Shown piece after piece: positions 880 through 59,198 of a DNA stretch of 64,000 nt (its first letter is position 1; each line of letters starts with the position of its first letter). The notes under the pieces were generated by a model. That model ran no database searches. It was not told where the DNA came from and saw only the letters and a program-made list of their open reading frames with translations. The position numbers and the translations under genes are program-made. Source of the stretch: Heterodontus francisci (lineage: Eukaryota); contig NC_090389.1 of NCBI RefSeq assembly GCF_036365525.1, positions 35,338,973-35,402,972 on the forward strand, read 5' to 3'.

Positions 880-980
880 CTGTTTCTCTCTCCGCAGACG
901 CTGCCAGACCTGCTGAGTATTTTCAGCACTTTCTGTTTTTATTTCAGATTTCTGGCATCTGCAGTATTTTGCTTTTATTT
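880..980 (+). repeat. Penelope-like element 3' tail fragment (no ribozyme core)
   Basis: Closely matches 12583-12680, the tail of the Penelope terminal repeat (ctctccacagatgctgccagacctgctgagtatttccagcac...gcagtattttgctttta). Confidence 0.85.
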
Positions 981-1409: not shown

Positions 1410-2615
1410 TTTCTTGCCCTGTCTACAACTCCCCTTCCTCTCCAAAATCCTTGAATGTGTTGTCTTTCCCAGAACTCCATGCTTGAATCCCTCCAATCAG
1501 GTTTACTCCCCTGCTACAATACCAAAACAGCTCTTTTCAAAGTTATCACATGTACACTGACGACACACCACCGTCTCTCCCCACTACTCCACTGTTGCTA
1601 AATTATCAGAGTGTTTAACATCCAGTATTGGATTTGTAGAAAGTGGGAAGAACGAAGCCATTATCTTTGGTGCCCACTACGAACTCTGCTCCCTCGCTAC
1701 CAACTTCATCTCTCTCCCTGGCAACTGTCTGTAGATAAACCAGACTATTCGCAACCTCCATGTCAAATTTGACCTTGAAGTGAGCTTCTGACCCTGTAGC
1801 CGTGCCTTCACTAAGACTGTAACATCACCCAACTCCGCCTCACCTCAGCTCAACTGCTAAAATCCTCATCCATGCCTTCGTTACTTACAGACTTGACTAC
1901 TGGAATGCACTCCTGGCTGGCCTCCCATTCTACCCTTGAGCTCCTCCATAACTCTGCTGCCCATGTGTTTATTCGCACCAAGTCCCGTTCATCCATCATA
2001 ATAAAAGCAAAATACTGCGGATGCTGGAAATCTGAAATGAAAGGGTCACTGACCTGAAGAAGGGTCACTGACCTGAAATGTTAACTCTGCTTCTCTCTCC
2101 ACAGATGCTGCCAGACCTGCTGAGTATTTCCAGCATTTCTTGTTTTCATCCCCTTCACCCATCACTTCTGTGCTTGCTGACCTACATTAGCTGCCAGTCA
2201 AGCAATGCCTCAATTTTAAAATTCTCACCCTTGTTTCCAAATGCCTCCATGGTCTCACTGCTCCTTGTCTCTGTAATCTTCTCCAGCCCCACAAACCTCT
2301 GAGATATTAGCACTAATCTAATTCTGACCTGTTGAGCATCTCCAATTTTAATTGCTCCATCATTGGTGATTGTGCCTTCAGCTGCCTCGGGCTTAAGCTC
2401 TGAAATTCCTTTCCTAAACCTCTCTGCTTCTCTATCTCAGTTTCCTCCTCTAAGATGCTCCTTAAAAACTGCTTCTTTGTTTGAGCTGTTGACCATCTGT
2501 CCAAACATCTCCTAATGTGGCTTGGTGTCATATTTTGCTTTATATAGGGCCTGTGAAGAGCCTTGGGATGTTTTATTATATTAAAGGCACTATATAATAC
2601 AAGTTGTTGTCGTTA
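1410..2615 (+). mobile_element. Old L2 LINE 3' fragment, interrupted at 1999-2148
   Basis: Decayed LIHAFVTYRLDY...LLAGLP RT C-terminal segment at about 1865-1930. L2-type tail gagccttgggatg...aaaggcactatataatacaagttgttgt at 2557-2610. Confidence 0.75.
1999..2148 (+). mobile_element. Short Penelope-derived insertion: inverted tail piece, duplicated hammerhead stem II, then tail
   Basis: Flanked by tcccgttcatccatca (1983-1998) and tccccttcacccatca (2149-2164), a 14/16 match. Core CTGAAGA-agggtcactgacct-GAAA-tgtt-aact at 2054-2086. Confidence 0.75.
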
Positions 2616-9172: not shown

Positions 9173-9408
9173 ATCAAGAAATGTTTTGTTCTGGTCTGGT
9201 ACAAAGTGGAAATGTAGTTAGCCATGGTGCAAACTGCTACACCTACGGGAAAAATATGTGAAAAGATCCATTGATACTCCAAGCCAAATTGTCAGGATGT
9301 TAGTACCAATATATTTGAATTTAGTTCAATTCAATATTTAATAATTTTGGAACACAAAGTGCTGGAAATACTCAGCAGGTCTGGCAGCATCTGTGGAGAG
9401 AGAAGCAA

Positions 9409-9445
9409 AGTTAACGTTTCAGGAGCGTGACCTTTCATCAGAACT
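9409..9445 (-). ncRNA. Minimal type I hammerhead ribozyme motif (stem II weakened)
   Basis: Minus strand reads AGTT-CTGATGA-A-aggtcacgctcct-GAAA-CGTT-AACT. The core is intact and stem II is reduced to agg/cct. Confidence 0.7.
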
Positions 9446-9706
9446 GGCAAAGGTTAGAAAAGAATGAGGTTTAAAGCAAGTGAAGGGGAGCTGGGTGGGG
9501 GAGAAAACAAAGGGAAAGGTGTTTGATAGGGCAGGAGAGATTAAATAGCAAAGCTCTCCTGGGAAAAAGGCAAAGCGTGTGCTAATGCTTGTGGTGAAAG
9601 ACAATGCATTAGTCCAGAGAGACTGTTAATAGCAGAATAATGAGCAGCTCTGACTACATGAAAAGCAGGCACATGGTTAAAAAATTAAATATTAAAAAGA
9701 GGCCAG

Positions 9707-12200
9707 TCATGCTCTGAAGTTATTGAACTCAATGTTCAGTCTGCAAGGCTGTAGAGTGCCTAATTGAAAGATCAGGTGCTGCTCCTCGAGCTTGCGTTGA
9801 TGTTCACTGGAACACTGGAGCAGGCCAAAGACAGAAATGTTGGCATGACAGCAGTGGGGAGTGCTGAAATGGCAAGCAACCGGAAGCTCAGGGTCATGCT
9901 TTTGGACTGAGCGGAGGAGGTGTTCAACAAAGCGGCCACCCAATCTGCATTTGGTCTCCCCAATGTAGAGGAGACCACATTGTAAGCAGTAAATACAGTA
10001 TACTAAATCGAAAGAAGTACAAGTAAATCGGTGCTTCATCTGAAAGGAGTGTTTGGGGCCTTGGATAGTGAAGAGAGAGGAGGTACTAGGGCAGGTATTA
10101 CACCTCCTGCGATTGCATGGGAAGGTGCCTTGGGAAGGGGACAAGGTGTCGGGGGTAATGGAGGAGTGGACCAGAGTGTCACTGAGGGAACGATTCCTTC
10201 AGAATGCTGACAGGGGAGGGCAAGGGAAGATGCGTTTGGTGGTGGCATCACGCTCTAAGAGGCGGAAATGGCAGAGGATGATCCTCTGAATGTGGAGGCT
10301 GGTGGGGTGGAAAGTGAGGACAAGAGGAACCCTGTCGCGGTTCTGGGAGGGAGGGGAAGGCGTGAGGGCAGAAGTGCAGGAAATGGGCCGTGTCAACCAC
10401 AGTGAGCGGGAATCCTCTGTTGAGGAAAAAGAAAGACATATCAGAGGCGCTGTTGTGGAAGGTTGCATCATCAGAGCAGATGCGTCAGAGACGGAGAAAC
10501 TGGGAGAATGGAATGGAGTCCTTACAGGAGGCGGGGTGTGAGGAAGTGTATTCGAGATGGCTGTGGAGTCGGTGGGCTTATAATGAATATTAGTGGACAG
10601 CCTATCCCGAGAGATGGAGACAGGGAAGTCGAGGAACAGAAGGGAAGGGTGGTGTCTGAGATAGACCATGTAAAGATGAGAGAAGGGTGGAAATTGGAAG
10701 CAAAGTTGATAACGTTTTCCAGTTGGGGGCGGGAGCAGGAAACGGCACCGATACAGTCATCAATGTACCTGAAAAAGAGTTGGGGGAGGGGGCCTGAATA
10801 GGACTGGAACAAGGAATGTTTGACATATCCCACAAAAAGACAGGCATAACCAGGACCCATGCACGTACCCATAGCAACACCTTTTACTTGAAGGAAGTGA
10901 GTGGAGTTGAAGGAGAAGTTGTTCAATGTGAGAACAAGTTCAGCCAGGCGGAAGAGGGTGGTGGTGGATAGGGACTGGTTGGGCCTCTGTTCAAGGAAGA
11001 AGCGGAGTGCCCTCAAACCACCCTGGTGGGGGATGGAAGTGTAGAGAGATTGGACGTCCATAATGAAGAGGAGGCAGTTAGGGCCAGGAAACCGGAAATT
11101 GTCAAAATGACGTAGGGCTTCAGAAGAGTCATGGATGTAGGTGGAAAGAGACTGGACCAGCGGAGAAAAGATAGAGTCAAGATAGGAAGAAATAAGTTCA
11201 GTGGGGCAGGAGCAGGCTGACACAATGGGTCTGCCGGGACAGTCCTGTTTGTGGATTTTGGGGAGGAAGTAGAAGCGGGCTGTCCAGGGTTGTGGGACTA
11301 TGAGGTTGGAAGCTGTAGAGGGAAGATCTCCGGAGGACATGAGGTCAGTCATAGTCCTGTGGACAGTAGCCTGATGTTCGGTGATGGGGTCTTGGCCCGG
11401 GGGAGGTAGGAAGAAGTGTCTGAGAGTTGGCACTCAGCCTCTAAAGGTAGAGGTCGGTATGCCAGACAACAACAGCACCACCCTTGTCTGCAGGTTTGAT
11501 CACAATGTCGGGGTTAGACCTGAGAGAACGGTGTGCAGAAGGTCAGAAGGAGACAGGTTAGAGTGAGTGAGGGGAGCAGAGAAATTGAGAAGACCGATGT
11601 CTCACACCGACAGTTCTCAATAAAAAGATCAAGAGTGGGTAAGAGGCCAGTGGGAGGGCCCCAGGTGAAGGGAGAATGCTGGAGGTGGGTGAATGGGTCT
11701 GCTGGTCAGGGGGAGGACCTGGTCAAAGAAGTGATCACGAAGGCGATGGAAGAAGAGCTCAACGTCATGCCGAGCACGAAATTCATTCAGGTGGGGGTGT
11801 AAGGGGATAAAACTGCGTCCTTTGCTGAGTACAGATCGTTCAGCATCAGAGAGGGGAACGTCAGAGGATGTAGTGAATACACGGCAAGGGGTCAGATCAG
11901 AAGCAATGGGGTCAGAGGGAGGTGAAGGGGAAGAAGGATCTGGAGGGGCATTAGTCCCCATCAGCTGCTGGAGCTAGCGTTCCTTAACACCTGAAAGGAA
12001 GAAAAAAAGTTTTTTATTAATGCATTGGATAAGGATGAAATGAAACTGCAGAGCAGAACAGCTTTGAGATAGGATCAGGCGGTACTTCTGCAGCAAGAGG
12101 TCCAGTGTGTACATGTGACGGCGCATGGCACTGAGTGTGGATCTCAGGATGCGGCGAGAACAGCAGTCTGAGGAACGTTGTATTTCTTGGAGATACGCAT
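9707..12200 (-). pseudogene. Penelope RT + GIY-YIG endonuclease, frameshifted
   Basis: ARFYFLPKIHKQDCPGRPIVS, DVQSLYTSIP, QVKGVAMG and FFRYIDDCIG (RT). GTFPCNRRRCNTC and VYCIYCLQCGLLYIGETKCRLGGRFVEH (Cys-rich linker and GIY-YIG). Confidence 0.92.
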
Positions 12201-12545
12201 GCTCGAGGAGCAGCACCTGATCTTTCGATTAGGCACTCTGCAGCCTTGCAGACTGAACATTGAGTTCAATAACTTCAGAGCATGACTGGCCTTTTTTAAT
12301 ATTTAATTTTTTAACTATGTGCCTACTTTTCATGTAGTCAGAGCTGCTCATTATTCAGTTGTCAACAGTCTCTCTGGACTAATGCTTTGTCTTTCACCAC
12401 AAGCATTAGTATACTATTTGCCTTTGTCCAAGGACAGCTTTGTTATTTAATCGCCCTCTGCCCTATCAAACACCTTTCCCTTTGTTCTCTCCCCCACCCC
12501 CTCCCCTTCACTTGCTTTAAATCTAATTCTTTTCTAACCTTTGCC

Positions 12546-12582
12546 AGTTCTGATGAAAGGTCACAGACCTGAAACGTTAACT
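12546..12582 (+). ncRNA. Minimal type I hammerhead ribozyme motif
   Basis: AGTT (stem I) CTGATGA A AGGTC-aca-GACCT (stem II) GAAA CGTT AACT (stem I'). Stem III is the palindrome ACGT. Predicted cleavage is after GUU at 12578. Confidence 0.82.
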
Positions 12583-13259
12583 TTGCTTCTCTTTCCACAG
12601 ATGCTGCCTGACCTGCTGAGTATTTCCAGCACTTTTTGTTTTTGTTTCAGATTTCCAGCATCTGCAGTATTTTGCTTTTATTTAATAATTTTGGACTTTT
12701 TTCATTTGTCTCATAGATTAATGAATGTCAGGAGTTCAAATGTGTTTGCCCTTTCAAGAAATAGTTTGCTAGATATTGTATGCCAGATGAAATTGTTGCA
12801 CATAATGGACCCAACCTGAAAAATTTGGAATTCAAAAATCTTTGCTGAGCCCATGGTTGAAAGAATATGGCCACAATATAATGAGAAAGCTGAGAAAGTT
12901 ATTTGAATTGAAAAAGCGCTGTTGACAAAAGCAAAAGGTCAAAATGTATATCTCATGCTTCTTACTTATCCTTCCATCCCTGGGGTGACGGAGTGTCACC
13001 CGCACAGTTGTTGATGAGCTGCAGGGCGAAAACAGCACTTCCCAGCCCAGAATGAGAGCTCAAATAAAAAATTATCAAAGGAGTTTTACAAAATCTTATG
13101 TTCAACAAAAGTAAGAAAAAGATATACTTTGGCCAGTGATCTCATCCTGTAAAGCTGCAACCAAGATGCAGTGAGGATCTATGAACAGGATAAACGGAGA
13201 GCAGCAGTTGTTCAGCAAAAGATTAATGAGCTGAGATCAAGGCCCCAATGATAAATTGT

Positions 13260-23179: not shown

Positions 23180-25580
23180 TTAGACTCCATAGCTCCGAAA
23201 CCAGGTGCAGAGATCGCGATGCGCAATTAAGCCGTGGCCATCGACCGCAGCGCAGACAACACGCAAACTTCCTGTTGCTAGTTGTTTTGAATTATTACAG
23301 AGTCCAGCTAAGGCTGTTGATTGGCTGGACATCTAAACAGGAGGCAAATATTCTGATTGGTTAGCACCAGTTAAGGCTAGTCTGTACTGCTTAAAGCTAG
23401 CCTGCACCGATTGAAGGGGAAGATGCATTTTAGCTGGGGCAGGTGCTGGCAGTCCTGTGGGACTGAAATTGACCAAGAAAGACAGCAGAATGGCACCATA
23501 TAGGAAAGAGTGGGCTCCAAGGTTTCTCATCGTTGCACTGGAGACCTTGGTGGAGGAAGTGGAAAGAAGGAGAGATGTCCTGTATCTGCAGAGAGCCAAG
23601 AGGCCCTCCAGACATACGCTAGGAGGCAGTAGGAGCAAATAGCCATGGAGGTCAATGCCAGGAGTAAATTCCCAAGGACCTTTTTTTATTCATTCATGGG
23701 ATGTGGGCGTCGCTGGTGAGGCCAGCATTTATTGCTCATCCCTGACTGCCCTTACGAAGGTGGTGGTGAGCTGCCTTCTTGAACCACTGCAGTCCATGTG
23801 GTGTAGGTACACCCACAGTACTGTAAGGGAGGGAGTTCCAGGATTTTGACCCAGTGATGGTGAAGGAACAGTGATTATAGTTCCAAGTCAGGATGGTTAG
23901 GCAGCAGAACTTTCAGGTGGTGTTCAGATGGGTCTGCTGCCCTTGCCCTTCTTGGTGGTAGAGGTAATAGGTTTGGAAGCTGCTGTTGAAGTAGCCTTGG
24001 TGAGTTGCTGCAGTGCATCTTGTAGATGGTATACACTGCCGCCACTGTGTGCCACTGGTGGAGGGAGTGAATGTTTAAGGTGCTGGATATGATGCCAATC
24101 AAGCGGGCTGCTTTGTTCTGGATGGTATCGAGCTTCTTGAGTGTTTTTGGAGCGGCACTCATTAAGGGAAGTGGCGTGTTTTCCAACACACTCCTGACTT
24201 GAGCCTTGTAGATGGTGGACAGGCTTCGGGGAATCAGGAAATGAGTTACTCACCACACAATTCCCAAACTCTGACCTGCGCTTGTAGCTACAGTATTTAT
24301 ATGGCTGGTCCCCAGGACGTTGATGGTTAGGCATTCAGCATGGTATTGACGTTAAACAAAAAGGGAGACTATTAGATTCTCTCTCGTTGGAGATGGTCAT
24401 TGTCTGGCACTTGTGTGGCGTGATTATTACTTGCCACTTAGCAGCCCAAGCTTGAATTTTGTCCAGATCTTACTGCATGTAGTATGGACTACTTCAGTAT
24501 CTGAGGAGTTGTGAATGGTACTAAACATTGCACAATCAGAAGCAAACAGCCCTCTTTCTAACCTTATGTTGGAGGGAAGTTCATTGATGAAGCAGCTGAA
24601 GATGGTTGGGCCTAGGACACTACCTGAAGGAACTCCTGCAACAAAGTCCTGGGACTGAGATGATTGACTTCCAACAACCACAACCATCTTCCTTTGTGCT
24701 CGGTATGTCTCCAAATGGTGAAGAGTTTTGCCCCTAATTCCCAATGACTTCAATTTTGCTGGGTCTCCTTGATGCCATACTCAGTTAAATGCTCCCTTTA
24801 TGTCAAGTGCAGTGACTCTCACCTCGCCTGCTGTATTCAGCTCAGTTGTGGCTGCAGTAGGTGATAGATTTCAGTGAGGGCATTTTTACCGAAGCACAGA
24901 CCTCAAACACTCTGTTTCTCTCTGAGGTTGAGATAAAAAAACTGTTCTCTGAACACTCTGGGTGGTTATGACCTCTGCTGAAAGTCCTTCTCCTCCTCCT
25001 CCCTCTTCCAGCAGTTTGTCCTGCTCTGCGTGTCCTTTGTTCATTCTCCAAATCATGTTGTATTTGAAGGGGAATGCCTACTATTGCACGCATGTCTGGG
25101 AGCAACGGGCTTGTGCCGAAATCTTGAAGTTAGTAAAAATTGCTTAAGCACCTGTACACTTCTGCAACTTTGAACAACTATAGAAAGGACTAAAGTTGTA
25201 GAATTGAAGCAACAGCCAGAAGAAATCAACCAGCAACTAACCTGTAAATAGTGCTTATATAATAGTGCTTATGGGAGTTCTTCCTGCTGCTGAACCCATG
25301 TTCACTGTGCATGCTTAAGAGAGGGCATTAGCTGGAGCATCGAGCTCCAAACTGACAGCACTGGTGTCAAAACAGCATTGCACACTGATTGACGACATGA
25401 TCTGCCTGCTTAGCATCCTTCCGATGGCTTTTCACCACACGCATAAACACCCTCCCTAATGTTGTGTGCGGCACAACTCAATACAAAGTGTATGTGTGCT
25501 CTGGAGACCGTTTTGGACACCAAGCAGCACCCCTAGTCCCTAAACTACAGACACGACCAAATCAAATTTTGCGCCATAAT
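23180..25580 (-). mobile_element. Second Harbinger relic: Myb/SANT gene start (+, about 23490-23670) and transposase start (-, about 24842-25090), centre replaced by a LINE
   Basis: APRFLIVALETLVEEVERRRDVLY (Myb/SANT-like DNA-binding start). RVFREQFFYLNL...LTEIYHLLQPQL on the minus strand. Confidence 0.72.
23681..24841 (-). mobile_element. Non-LTR retrotransposon of the CR1/L2 group (second family), 3' fragment
   Basis: AGVPSGSVLGPTIFSCFINELP...FASDC and LKKLDTIQNKAARLIG. Tail ...cccacatcccatgaatgaataaaa. Confidence 0.88.
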
Positions 25581-32367: not shown

Positions 32368-33304
32368 CTGAACTCCAGAGGTGAGATGAGAGTGACTACC
32401 CTTGACATCAAGGCAGCATTTGACTGCGTATGGCATCAAGGAACCCGAGCAAAACTGGAGTCAATGGGAATCAGGGGAAAGCTCTTCATTGGTTGGAGTC
32501 ATACCTATCACAAAGGAGGATAGTTGTCGTTATGGAAGGTCAATCATTTCATTCCCAGGACATCACTGCAGGAGTTCCTCAGGACAGTGTCCTTGGGCCA
32601 AACATCTTCATCTGCTTCATCAGTGACCTTCCCTCCATCATAAGGTCAGAAGTGGGGACGTTCGCTGATGATTGCACAATGCACAATGCACCACAATGCT
32701 CCTCAGATACTGAAGCAGCCCATGTCCATATGCAGCAGACCTGGACAACATCCAGCCTTGGGCTGATAAGTGGCAAGTAACATTCGTGCCAAACAAGTGC
32801 CAGGCAATGACTATCTCAAATAAGAGAGATCTAACCATCTCTCCTTGATATTCAATAGCATTACCATCGCTGAATCCCTCACTATCAACATCCTGGGGGT
32901 TACGATTGACCATAACTGAACTGGACCAGCCACATAAATGCTATGGTTACAAGAGCAGTTTAGAGGCTGGGAATTCTGCGACGAGTAACTCACCTCCTAT
33001 CTCCCCAATGCCTGTCCACCATCTATAAGGCACAAGTCAGGAGTGTGATGGAATACTCTCCACATGCCTGGATGGATGCAGCTCTAACAACACTCAGGAA
33101 GCTCAACACCATCCAGGACAAAGCAGCCCGCTTGTTGGCACCCCATCTACTACCTTCAACATTCACTCCCTCCACCACCAATGCACAGTAACAGCAGTGT
33201 GTACCATCTACAAGATGCACTGCAGCAACTCACCAAGGCTACTTCGACAACACCTTCCAAACCTGTGACCTCTACCACCTAGGACAAGGGCAGCAAATGC
33301 ATCG

Positions 33305-42984: not shown

Positions 42985-43915
42985 ATTTCTTTTATTCCTT
43001 CATGAGATCGGGTGTCACTGGCTATGCCAGCATTTATTTCCCATCCCTAATTGCCCTTGAGAAGGTGGTGGTAAGCTGCCTTCTTGAACTGTTGCAGTCG
43101 TCGGGGTGTAGGTACACTAACAGTGCTGTTAGGAAGGGAGTACCAGGAATTTGACCCAGCGACAGTGAAGAAACAGTGATATAGTTCCAAGTCAGGATGG
43201 TGTGTGGCTTGGAGAGGAACTTGCAGGTGGTGGTGTTCCCATGCATCTGCTGCCCTTGGCCTTCTAGGTGGTAGAGGTCACAGGTTTGGAAGGTGCTATC
43301 GAAGGAGGCTTGGTGAGTTGCTGCAGTACATCTTGTAGATGTGACACATTGCTGCCACTGTGCGTCAGTGTGGAGACAGTGAAGTTGAAGGTGGTGGATG
43401 GGGTGCCTATCAAGTGGGCTGCTTTGTACTGGATCGTGTCGAGCTTCTTGAGTGTTGTTGGAGCTGCACCCATCCAGGAGAGTATTCCATCACACATTCA
43501 TCAGTTCTGATGAAAGGTCACTGACCTGAAACATTAACACTGCTTCTCTCTCCACAGATGCTGCCAGACCTGCTGAGTATTTCCAGCACTTTCTGTTTTC
43601 ATTCCATCACACCCCTGACTTGTGCCTTGTAGTTGGTGGACAGGCTTTGGGAAACAGGAGGTCAGTTACTCGCCGCAGAATTCCCAGCCTCTGATCTGCC
43701 CTTGTAGCCACAGCACTATGTGGATGTTCCAGTTCAGTTTCTGGTCAATAATGACCCCAGGATGTTGATAGTGGGGGATTTAGCGATGGTAATGCCATTG
43801 AACATTAAGAAGATGGTTAGCTTCTGTCTTGTTGGAGATGGTCATTGCCTAGCACTTGTGTGGCGCAAATGTTACTTGGCACTGATCAGCCCAAGCCTGG
43901 ATGTTGTCCAGGTAT
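42985..43915 (-). mobile_element. Second-family LINE 3' fragment
   Basis: WMGAAPTTLKKLDTIQYKAAHLIG and the same tail as at 23681. Confidence 0.88.
43496..43600 (+). mobile_element. 105-bp hammerhead-containing Penelope-derived mini-insertion
   Basis: Perfect 12-bp TSD attccatcacac (43484-43495 and 43601-43612). Contains AGTT-CTGATGA-A-AGGTC-act-GACCT-GAAA-catt-aac followed by the tail. Confidence 0.85.
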
Positions 43916-54464: not shown

Positions 54465-54842
54465 TGTTCAGTAGCGGCAGTGTGTACCATCTACAAGATG
54501 CACTGCAGCAACGCACCAAAGCTTCTTAGACAGCAACTTCCAAACCCGTGACCTCTACCACCTAGAAGGTCAAGGGCAGCAAATGTATGGAAACACCACC
54601 ACCTGCAAGTTCCCCTCAAGCCACACACCATCCTGACTTGGAACTATATCACTGTTCCTTCATTGTCACTGGGTCAAAATCCTGGAACTCCCTTCCTAAC
54701 AGCACTGTGGGTGTACCTAGCCCACATGGACTGCAGCAGTTCAAGAAGGCAGCTCAACACCAACTTCTCAAGGGCAATTAAGGATGGGCAATAAATGCTG
54801 GCCGAGCCAGCGATGCCCAAATCCCATAAATGAATAAAAAAA
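54465..54842 (+). mobile_element. Second-family LINE 3' end
   Basis: Matches 33190-33300 plus 34207-34466. Tail atcccataaatgaataaaaaaa. Confidence 0.88.
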
Positions 54843-57471: not shown

Positions 57472-59198
57472 CAGTGGTTGGCAATGTGTCCGTACACGCT
57501 GTCTGTAGTAAAAATGTTGAGGTCCGTGGTAATTTTAAATGGCTTGTTCCAAGCCTTTAAACTTCTGTTTTAAAACACAGGTTTAAAGGCTTAGAGCAAG
57601 ACATTTATCATTATCAGGAACAAAGGTAATTACAAAGGATCAGGCGAGTTCCTACAGCCCGCCAAAGTTTTGTATCAGGCCCGCCAATCGAAAGCACGAA
57701 TGGTTTGCCTGCACACGGACCTCTGTCTAATTGGAGCACGGGGAGTCAGGAATCTCTGGGAAGAATGGAGCTGTCAATCAAGGGGCGCTGACCAATGGGA
57801 GCAGGCAGGGGCAGTGCTGGTGGAGTGCAGGAGAGGCGGGACTCACTGGGAAGATTGGTGCCATCAATCAAGTGCTCCCTGCCTGTGTCTCAGCTGCAGA
57901 ACCAGATCTTGAGAGTGTTGGTGAGTAGAACAGATTGGATAGTGCACAGGAAGGCAATGATAGAACTGGAAAGGCTTGACTTTTTTGAGCCAGAGCAAGC
58001 TGTTTTTTTATAGGCAAAGAGTCCACTTTCTCAGCTCTCCAAACACCCTGGTTTCTCTCAGAGTGCAAGCCCGGTGCTGAGCGGAAATGTGTTTCCGCTC
58101 TTGGTGCATGGGGGAAGGGGTGGGACAGGAGAGAGTGGCGGGGGAGGAGCGAGACAAATTGACGGAAGGGGGGGGTGGAGAGGGAGAGAGTGGTGGGGTG
58201 AAGAGGGAGAGAGTGGCGGTGTGAAGAGGGAGAGAGTAGTGGGGTAAAGAGGGAGAGAGTAGTGGGGTGAAGAGGGGAGAGTGGCGGGGGAGAGGGAGTG
58301 AGTGGCGAGAGAGGGAGTGAGTGGGGGGAGGAGGAGGGGGGAGAGGGGGGATGGGGAGGGGGCAGAGTGGAAGGGGAGGGGGGAGAGTGGAAGGGGAGGG
58401 GGGAGAGTGGAGGGGAGGGGGGAGAGGCTGGTGAGAAGGGGGACAGGAGAGATGGGATAGAAAGGGGCAGGGAGGTATGGGATAGAGAGGGGGTGGGAGA
58501 GATGGGATAGAGAGTGGGAGAGAGAGATGAGAGAGGGAGCTGTGAGAGGGAGGGGTGCAGGGAGTAGAGGGAGTGGGCAGGGGAAGAGAGAGGGCTCGAG
58601 GAGGAAGAGGGTGGTAGGAGGAGAGGGGACAAGGAGGGGGAGAGGGGGGAGGGTCACGGGGGAGAGGGGAGAGGGACACGAGGGGAGAGGGACACGGGGG
58701 GAGAGGGGGGAGAGACATGGGGGGAGAGAGGGGAGGGATATGGGGACTGAGAGAGGGAGACAGCGGAGAGGAGGGAGAGAGGGGAGGGATATGGGGACTG
58801 AGAGAGGGAGACAGCGGAGAGGAGGGAGAGTGGGGGGACATGGGGGGAGAGAGAGGGGGACACAGAGGGGAGAGGGATGGACACAGAGGGGAGTGGGATG
58901 GTCACAGAGAGGAGTGGGGGAGAGGGACAGAGACAGAAAGAGGGAGAGATCAAGATCACTCCTGACAGATGGACATCTATCCGAATTCTTTGCATTGTTC
59001 ATCAAGTGCGTGGGCAGACATTGACCACTTGTGCAAGCAAAAATAATGCCAGTTATCTCACTAAATAGGAAGCAATGTGATTTGAAACGGACTGTGTTTT
59101 GATGGCATTATGTTGGCAGATTAATTGCACCCATGTCCATGCCTGAGTCAATAATTTTGTCAAATGTCCGTGGTGCAACATGTTGGTTCCTATCCCTG
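57472..59198 (+). mobile_element. hAT (Charlie-like) non-autonomous element
   Basis: 8-bp TSD ggatagtg/ggacagtg, termini cagtggttggcaa...ttcctatccctg. The RSLLTDGHLS remnant of the hAT C-terminal dimerisation region is at about 58950-59066. Confidence 0.82.
58110..58950 (+). repeat. About 840-bp G/A-rich polypurine low-complexity tract
   Basis: Mostly G and A on +. Includes a roughly 51-bp tandem duplication (about 58725-58830). Confidence 0.95.

Follow-up and report, generated by a model that had tools for sequence, protein, structure and literature searches.

Within a stretch of 64,000 nt from Heterodontus francisci, analysed as a whole and referred to here as the window, a 105-bp insertion carrying a hammerhead motif lies between two short direct repeats. 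This locus raises the question of whether such an insertion belongs to a self-contained family of small ribozyme RNAs or is the remnant of a larger element. Judged by its sequence, the insert at 43496-43600 consists of a 6-nt fold-back and the last 99 nt of a Penelope-like element (PLE) of Neptune or Nematis type that carries an endonuclease. It is very probably a Penelope end stub, not a self-contained family, and it is a fossil copy.

The 12-mer ATTCCATCACAC was found in exact copies at 43484-43495 and 43601-43612, and the match extends in neither direction. With the ends fixed to within +/-10 nt, the chance of such a 12-bp duplication is about 4e-5. Moreover, a sister copy of the host LINE at ~33000 contains the 12-mer once, uninterrupted and without the insert. 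The first-pass annotation had described a 105-bp insertion between exact 12-bp duplications within a LINE, and this was confirmed. It had also held that the insert is hammerhead plus tail only, which is true of the terminal 99 nt; the first 6 nt are a fold-back that lies outside the family sequence. The right duplication begins with ATT, which fits the family tail too, and the 3′ border is therefore ambiguous by 3 nt. The translation of the host LINE, which we take to be of CR1/L2 type, resembles the C-terminus of LINE ORF2. The features of the locus are:

42987..43913, minus strand: host, the decayed 3′ part of a LINE, split by the insert, with 82-87% matches to window copies at 23681-24466, 32739-33302 and 54469-54842
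43484..43495, no strand: left target-site duplication, 12 bp, present singly in the uninterrupted LINE copy
43496..43501, minus strand: 6 extra nt, 5 of them complementary to the hammerhead core and one an unmatched A, with an 18-nt palindrome at 43497-43514
43502..43539, plus strand: minimal type I hammerhead motif of a Penelope pLTR, read against the available text of PMC4209133
43540..43600, plus strand: pLTR tail to site 1, the first of two preferred 3′ ends (profile position 104)
43601..43612, no strand: right target-site duplication, 12 bp

Five of the 6 extra nt would represent a fold-back of the cDNA end. Over 98 nt (43502-43599) the insert shares 93% identity with each end of a 3.3-kb unit (9351-12685), which together with two shorter insertions completes the set of features needed here:

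9351..12194, minus strand: long parent copy, 5′-truncated and frameshifted (RT, linker, GIY-YIG, 3′ UTR, hammerhead and tail to site 1), recognized by Pfam and the linker motif
12195..12685, plus strand: inverted 5′ arm (~490 bp) of the parent insertion, ending at site 2; the whole unit is flanked by a ~15-bp duplication
1999..2151, no strand: short head-to-head pair (site-2 arm and site-1 arm) in another LINE, with a 19-bp internal duplication
880..979, plus strand: tail-only stub without hammerhead, with its start downstream of the ribozyme and its end at site 2

Around the tail-only stub at 880-979 no duplication was found. The earlier count of three short tail-module insertions (880, 1999 and 43496) has to be replaced: the window holds nine profile matches, the one at 880 has no ribozyme and the one at 1999 is the head-to-head pair. 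Two broken fragments at 1-870 and 12700-13200, which we take to be of LTR-retrotransposon-like integrase region, flank two Penelope insertions.

The parent ORF joins a PLE-type RT to a C-terminal GIY-YIG, as expected of an EN+ Penelope-like element, with Pfam matches that are both weak and under the curated cut-offs (RVT_1, E 1.3e-5; GIY-YIG, E 0.006). A younger copy has a 533-aa frame with DKG, YIDD and CIRC..YIGET motifs. RT and EN are connected by the linker CNRRRCNTC, which fits the CX4CXXC / CX2-5CXXC definition. According to the accessible part of the source, a CX2-5CXXC linker marks the Neptune and Nematis clades, and by this motif the element would belong to one or the other (PMC8557442). 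In long copies the module with hammerhead and tail stands 3′ of the ORF. Since the same module also stands before the ORF in fuller copies (L194, L198-L200, L202, L205 and L228), it is identified as a pLTR with its tail, and a hammerhead-bearing pLTR is present at both ends of the ORF, again as in EN+ Penelope-like elements. At L194 (oriented 2237-2468), the ORF of a full-length copy is interrupted by a head-to-head pair of stubs that belongs to a different subfamily.

The hammerhead was described against a profile of 145 positions built from 14 copies, in which window position equals 43496 plus profile position. In the family profile the core occupies 11-17 and is followed by a bulged A, helix II (19-23/27-31), GAAA, and then CGTT and AACT. 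The corresponding parts of the insert are the 5′ strand of helix I (43503-43506), the core (43507-43513), the bulged A, helix II (43515-43519/43523-43527) and GAAA (43528-43531), with the ribozyme cut predicted after 43535. Helix II forms in the computed fold of the insert, and among 71 copies its pair 19-31 is G-C (25), A-T (22), G-T (22) or A-C (2). Core boxes, helix II covariation, a short helix I and the palindromic 15.2-16.2 pair make the family one of minimal type I hammerheads. The copy at 43502-43539 has two changes at conserved places, 43533 and 43539, and reads CATT and AACA. These changes break the dimer palindrome and one helix I pair, and folding places the hammerhead core in the fold-back of the insert, where it is sequestered; this copy is therefore predicted to be inactive. 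The fold of the whole insert is of ordinary stability (z -1.5). An Rfam scan returned no hammerhead family at E up to 1, which is expected with a minimal motif and is evidence neither way. A pattern for an intact core was passed by 22 of 93 copies (14 of 34 long, 8 of 59 short), a comparison biased by the helix I bases that the pattern requires and many short copies lack. The youngest subfamily (e.g., L205 and L228) has the core CCGAAGA, in which C replaces U4; helix II has a compensatory G-C at its base.

In the available text on metazoan PLEs, minimal type I hammerheads are mostly single dispersed motifs and are ascribed to truncated PLEs (PMC4209133). The shark family shares with them this dispersal, the absence of helix III, the palindromic C-G after GAAA, the bulged base before helix II and the short helix I. 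In contrast to those described there, helix II here has 5 bp, the copy at 43502-43539 is without the palindrome and one subfamily has the core CCGAAGA (PMC4209133).

An unbiased sample covered 1.664 Mb, made up of the window and sixteen 100-kb blocks, each from a different contig, and yielded 151 profile matches. Of these, 142 lie in the blocks (89 per Mb); at that density the 6.0 Gb genome would contain about half a million pieces; the high copy number proposed by the first-pass annotation is thus borne out by 142 matches in 1.6 Mb. The 3′ ends are bimodal, at profile positions ~105-115 and 138-143, and the stub at 43496-43600 ends at the first, site 1. Among 21 inverted units, 15 pair site 1 with site 2, one has site 2 twice, none has site 1 twice and 5 have a broken arm; the optional 30-40-nt tail on one arm that characterizes inverted EN+ Penelope-like units is found here as well. 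Duplications could be called in 18 of 79 solo matches (null 7/395) and not in the other 61. Fourteen of the 18 are 13-15 bp long, and the 5′ start falls at 4-12 in 14 of the 18 duplication-flanked solo copies.

Much of this is familiar from other EN+ PLEs. Their insertions are reported, in the portions of the two sources available, to show frequent 5′ truncation, inversions, solo pLTRs and target duplications, and their 5′ pLTR palindromes are ascribed to self-priming (PMC3846280; PMC8557442). The optional 30-40-nt tail on one arm of inverted pairs is already described as well (PMC3846280). Truncation, the one-arm tail, 5′ palindromes, solo pLTRs and duplications are common to those insertions and the shark copies, and the literature accordingly already covers truncated PLE ends, tails, 5′ palindromes and solo pLTRs. 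Two differences stand out from the accessible text: the duplications are mostly 13-15 bp here versus 8-10 bp in rotifer, and the dominant stop at the 5′ edge of the ribozyme was not found in those descriptions (PMC3846280; PMC8557442).

Of the 95 matches that reach position 14, 60 end within 2-14 (0.049 per nt), and the following 100 nt hold the ends of 6 of the 35 that pass the hotspot (0.0017 per nt), so that the 5′-end rate at 2-14 is ~28-fold higher. The excess is sharp at profile positions 5-9, with its mode at 7-8 and a spread of ~5 nt, and 5′ ends upstream of the ribozyme lie dispersed across 16-2842 nt. Because the hotspot count in the unbiased sample may be raised by old, eroded copies, young copies were examined too. 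Exact 45-mers from position 13 gave 572 and 858 matches for two subfamilies. With flanks read by eye, 35 of 52 fetched young matches of the first subfamily were short and 17 long, which argues against the hotspot being a subfamily artefact; in the second (n=30), 16 were short, 11 long and 3 unclear. Genome-wide, an exact 27-mer of the first subfamily (core CCGAAGA) has 37,408 matches to position 9. Extended further, 33,774 of these reach position 8, 28,182 position 7, 22,099 position 6 (obtained by subtracting 6,083) and 17,815 position 1, and point changes account for only a small part of this loss. The stop occurs in both 3′-end classes, with 18 of 29 site-1 copies and 30 of 44 site-2 copies short, and it is therefore tied to position, not length. 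None of the 7 ORF-joined modules with a ribozyme starts at the hotspot; all of them continue 37-543 nt further upstream.

Plain random 5′ truncation would explain why short and long copies are interleaved and why the ends upstream of the ribozyme are scattered. It would not produce a ~28-fold end rate at 2-14 or lose half of 37,408 copies within 8 nt, and its probability is negligible. The first-pass annotation had equated ordinary truncation with scattered 5′ ends plus interleaved short and long copies; the interleaving was observed, but the ends are not scattered (37,408 to 17,815 within 8 nt). As the 5′ ends pile up at the ribozyme 5′ edge, the truncation is not ordinary.

Two further observations concern the 5′ ends and the tallies. 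Three of six 5′ pLTRs of fuller copies (L199, L200 and L205) start close to the ORF stop codon, at 361-371 nt upstream of the module; this is possibly a second preferred 5′ end, with BLAST borders that are rough. At ~22.61-22.65 Mb of G000:C1, three sets of matches ~12 kb apart represent a local segmental triplication and are tripled in the pattern tallies.

Whether the short copies form a lineage of their own was examined by alleles and by phylogeny. Across 71 copies of the unbiased sample, none of 17 common variant columns separates short from long (all p > 0.18). When 127 copies (77 short and 50 long, with 4 young matches omitted as unclear or duplicate) were placed on a tree, the short/long label had to change 41 times, against 40.4 +/- 2.8 after shuffling, in an alignment whose 95 columns limit power. 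The largest all-short clade has 6 tips (support 0.57), and the nearest neighbour of the stub at 43496-43600 is a long copy. The clade of short copies that had been looked for is thus absent, and alleles are common to both classes. Nor is the fold-back an inherited family mark, a candidate that was rejected. A 25-mer across it matches the genome exactly at 109 places, which vary in arm length and 3′ end, and among 20 fetched cases 14 have a longer inverted arm (by eye), the palindrome arms measure 8-30 nt, the two loop alleles occur in 7 and 13, and both 3′ sites are present. Because arm lengths, loop alleles and 3′ ends vary in this way, fold-backs are seen as repeated events.

These results bear on a SINE-like reading, in which a short RNA would start at the ribozyme edge of any pLTR or stub, run into flanking DNA and be moved in trans by Penelope protein, each subfamily generating the RNA anew and hence no clade. 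The defined 5′ end (spread ~5 nt), the copies' own duplications, a share of about half of all copies and the absence of the hotspot start from all 7 full copies speak for it, and internal priming requires no defined 3′ end. Non-autonomous PLE derivatives are also known in Chlamydomonas. In a rotifer, pLTRs were enough for trans-mobilisation, as far as the accessible text states (PMC3846280). Against it, no allele is private to short copies, a lineage of their own with diagnostic changes was not seen in 95 columns, which limit power, and the fold-back is not inherited as a unit. In addition, the anole protein in vitro requires ORF sequence ~55 nt past the priming sites, according to the available part of the source (PMC11167929), and this sequence is absent from stubs. 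We regard the SINE-like reading as highly improbable.

Another small ribozyme RNA that could be considered is a non-LTR retrozyme, a circular RNA monomer cut by its hammerhead and inserted by PLE machinery. As described in excerpts of two sources, non-LTR retrozymes are tandem repeats of ~150-450 bp with canonical hammerheads and circular RNAs, and like the stubs they are non-coding, carry a type I hammerhead and derive from pLTRs (PMC7229834; bioRxiv 10.64898/2026.07.22.740005). The hammerhead motif, the small size and the relation to PLEs would fit, and pLTR-derived retrozymes are reported from one chondrichthyan in the part of the preprint available (bioRxiv 10.64898/2026.07.22.740005). Unlike those described, the stubs are single, tail-ended and not tandem (PMC7229834; bioRxiv 10.64898/2026.07.22.740005). 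The window contains no tandem units or arrays, and in the whole sample 2 of 151 matches have a same-strand neighbour within 300 nt, so that the tandem arrays proposed for inspection did not materialize. Moreover, helix III of a canonical type I hammerhead is absent, the ends are neither at the cut site nor permuted, the core of the 43502-43539 copy is changed and an intact-core pattern is found in the 22 of 93 copies given above. Tandem units and circular RNA are what define a retrozyme, so membership fails, and a retrozyme origin is barely credible. Of the two readings offered by the first-pass annotation, an extremely 5′-truncated Penelope is right in kind, and a retrozyme-like non-autonomous family is unsupported given the interleaved tree and the lack of tandem units. 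On G000:C1, same-strand young pLTR pattern matches at 23221475, 23224765 and 23228055 are 3,290 bp apart; judging by this spacing they likely form a head-to-tail array of unit-length elements, which would be a candidate source of read-through RNA.

The stub was probably made by the element's own RT and GIY-YIG nuclease, with priming in the tail and run-off at the end of an RNA whose 5′ terminus coincides with the ribozyme edge. Within this reading the run-off step at the RNA 5′ end is a proposal to which we give slightly less than an even chance. A staggered cut by the element's nuclease, 12 nt apart, would be followed by internal RT priming at site 1, as seen in vitro for the anole element, with the duplication starting with ATT. 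The RT would copy ~100 nt of template and reach the RNA 5′ end at an initiator-like YCAGTT (A = position 7), leaving a cDNA that ends at position 6. The cDNA end could then fold back on CAG/CTG and extend by 5-6 nt, and joining and fill-in would complete the insertion. The hotspot YCAGTT matches what we take to be the initiator consensus, with A7 as +1. Among the first 100 non-C matches listed, 40 have a G immediately before A7, where 29% would be expected (p 0.01); in a smaller set of fetched copies the excess is not significant (8/18, p 0.11; 8/18, p 0.17), and it is a weak cap-derived sign. The ribozyme cut site was rejected as the main source of ends: 16 of 133 end at 33-45, which is no higher than at 15-32. 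With ends lying elsewhere than at its cut site, the ribozyme rides along in the insertion as a passenger.

Some evidence counts against the run-off reading. In D. virilis Penelope the end of a 75-nt intron falls at helix I, and the start site is found 46 nt in front of that intron, not at helix I itself; the hotspot ends are spread over ~5 nt, and the G excess is modest. The absence of hotspot starts from all 7 ORF-joined modules speaks against the full mRNA simply starting at that site. This could be reconciled by assuming that priming requires ORF sequence beyond the tail, by analogy with the in vitro system. The RNA of a single-unit element, with one usable priming junction, would then give stubs only, and long copies would come from tandem read-through RNA.

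Alternatively, the stub would still come from Penelope, but the RT would halt at a roadblock at the priming-proximal ribozyme, either the footprint of the Penelope protein on the hammerhead or splicing factors. The hotspot is unused when the RT comes from the ORF (0/7), which fits a block limited to the bound end, and the end rate is elevated throughout the motif (~0.01 per nt at 15-45). The anole ribozyme also cleaves only with protein, according to the accessible text (PMC11167929). For the splicing-factor variant, a 3′ splice-site-like CTAAC/CTAAT..YAG ends at position 8; the branch-point-like motif and YAG are kept in aligned long copies, and the D. virilis intron ends at helix I. A roadblock, on the other hand, should halt the RT 3′ of the structure, not after it is copied, and leaves the G excess unexplained. 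Tests for splicing gave weak results: of 26 junction-like matches, 7 agree with the exon end predicted upstream, but 5 of these are explained as inverted arms and the exon is at most 9 nt in all, and no such joint occurs among the 15 of 21 joints listed. We consider a roadblock unlikely, though it is the leading alternative. A stop at a lariat branch point was rejected by position, as it would fall near -1, not at 5-9.

The splice-like motifs can also be described in their own right. A GT-donor-like TG|GTCAGY lies ~105 nt upstream in L205 (oriented 983-1100) and in aligned long copies, kept across subfamilies, as is the branch-point-like CTAAC/CTAAT with a YAG ending at the start of helix I. 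Further acceptor-like sites are found at profile positions 61 and 111 and beyond the tail. The kept donor, branch and acceptor motifs likely mark a putative pLTR intron, as in D. virilis.

The run-off reading can be extended to a second pLTR promoter at the ribozyme edge, whose capped RNAs would form a distinct template class and yield some hundred thousand stubs of 100-140 bp. Stubs and 3′ pLTRs would be transcribed and moved in trans, SINE-like without tRNA or Pol III parts, renewed in each subfamily and likely a seedbed for retrozymes. This extension is distinctly unlikely. Contig depth across the ribozyme 5′ edge drops ~tenfold in two runs and 3.5-fold in a third and shows no drop in a fourth, a result that an 88% likeness filter together with genomic or intronic copies would also explain, most of the runs being RNA by guess only; it is given no weight here.

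The closest known parallel is PAc (Poseidon, Anolis carolinensis), for which the available text describes two priming sites ~35 nt apart downstream of the hammerhead in vitro (PMC11167929). The two-site pattern, a ribozyme cut that is not needed and ATT at the cut are common to PAc and the shark element. PAc belongs to another clade than the Heterodontus element, and its 5′ ends are not described in the accessible part (PMC11167929). A literature search of titles and abstract starts, outside Repbase, Dfam, subscription journals and supplements, found no paper on a fixed stop at the edge of a PLE hammerhead or on stubs of the shark type.

The interest lies in the population and not in the single copy, as tens of thousands of young copies allow base-level statistics on how PLE insertions are completed. 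The stop at the ribozyme edge likely marks the start of the template RNA and gives a handle on PLE copying. Direct predictions follow for the existing in vitro system: about half of cDNAs should end at the ribozyme edge if primed beside it, none should stop there when the RT arrives from the ORF (0/7), and inverted units should pair one priming site with the other. The family also serves as a caution: single, scattered hammerhead units may have neat ends and duplications without being retrozymes.

Elsewhere in the window, an AT-rich imperfect inverted repeat of ~95 bp lies at 57525-57619, with weak microRNA-model matches far below gathering scores. A degenerate G/A-rich minisatellite with periods of 20-51 occupies 58118-58933.
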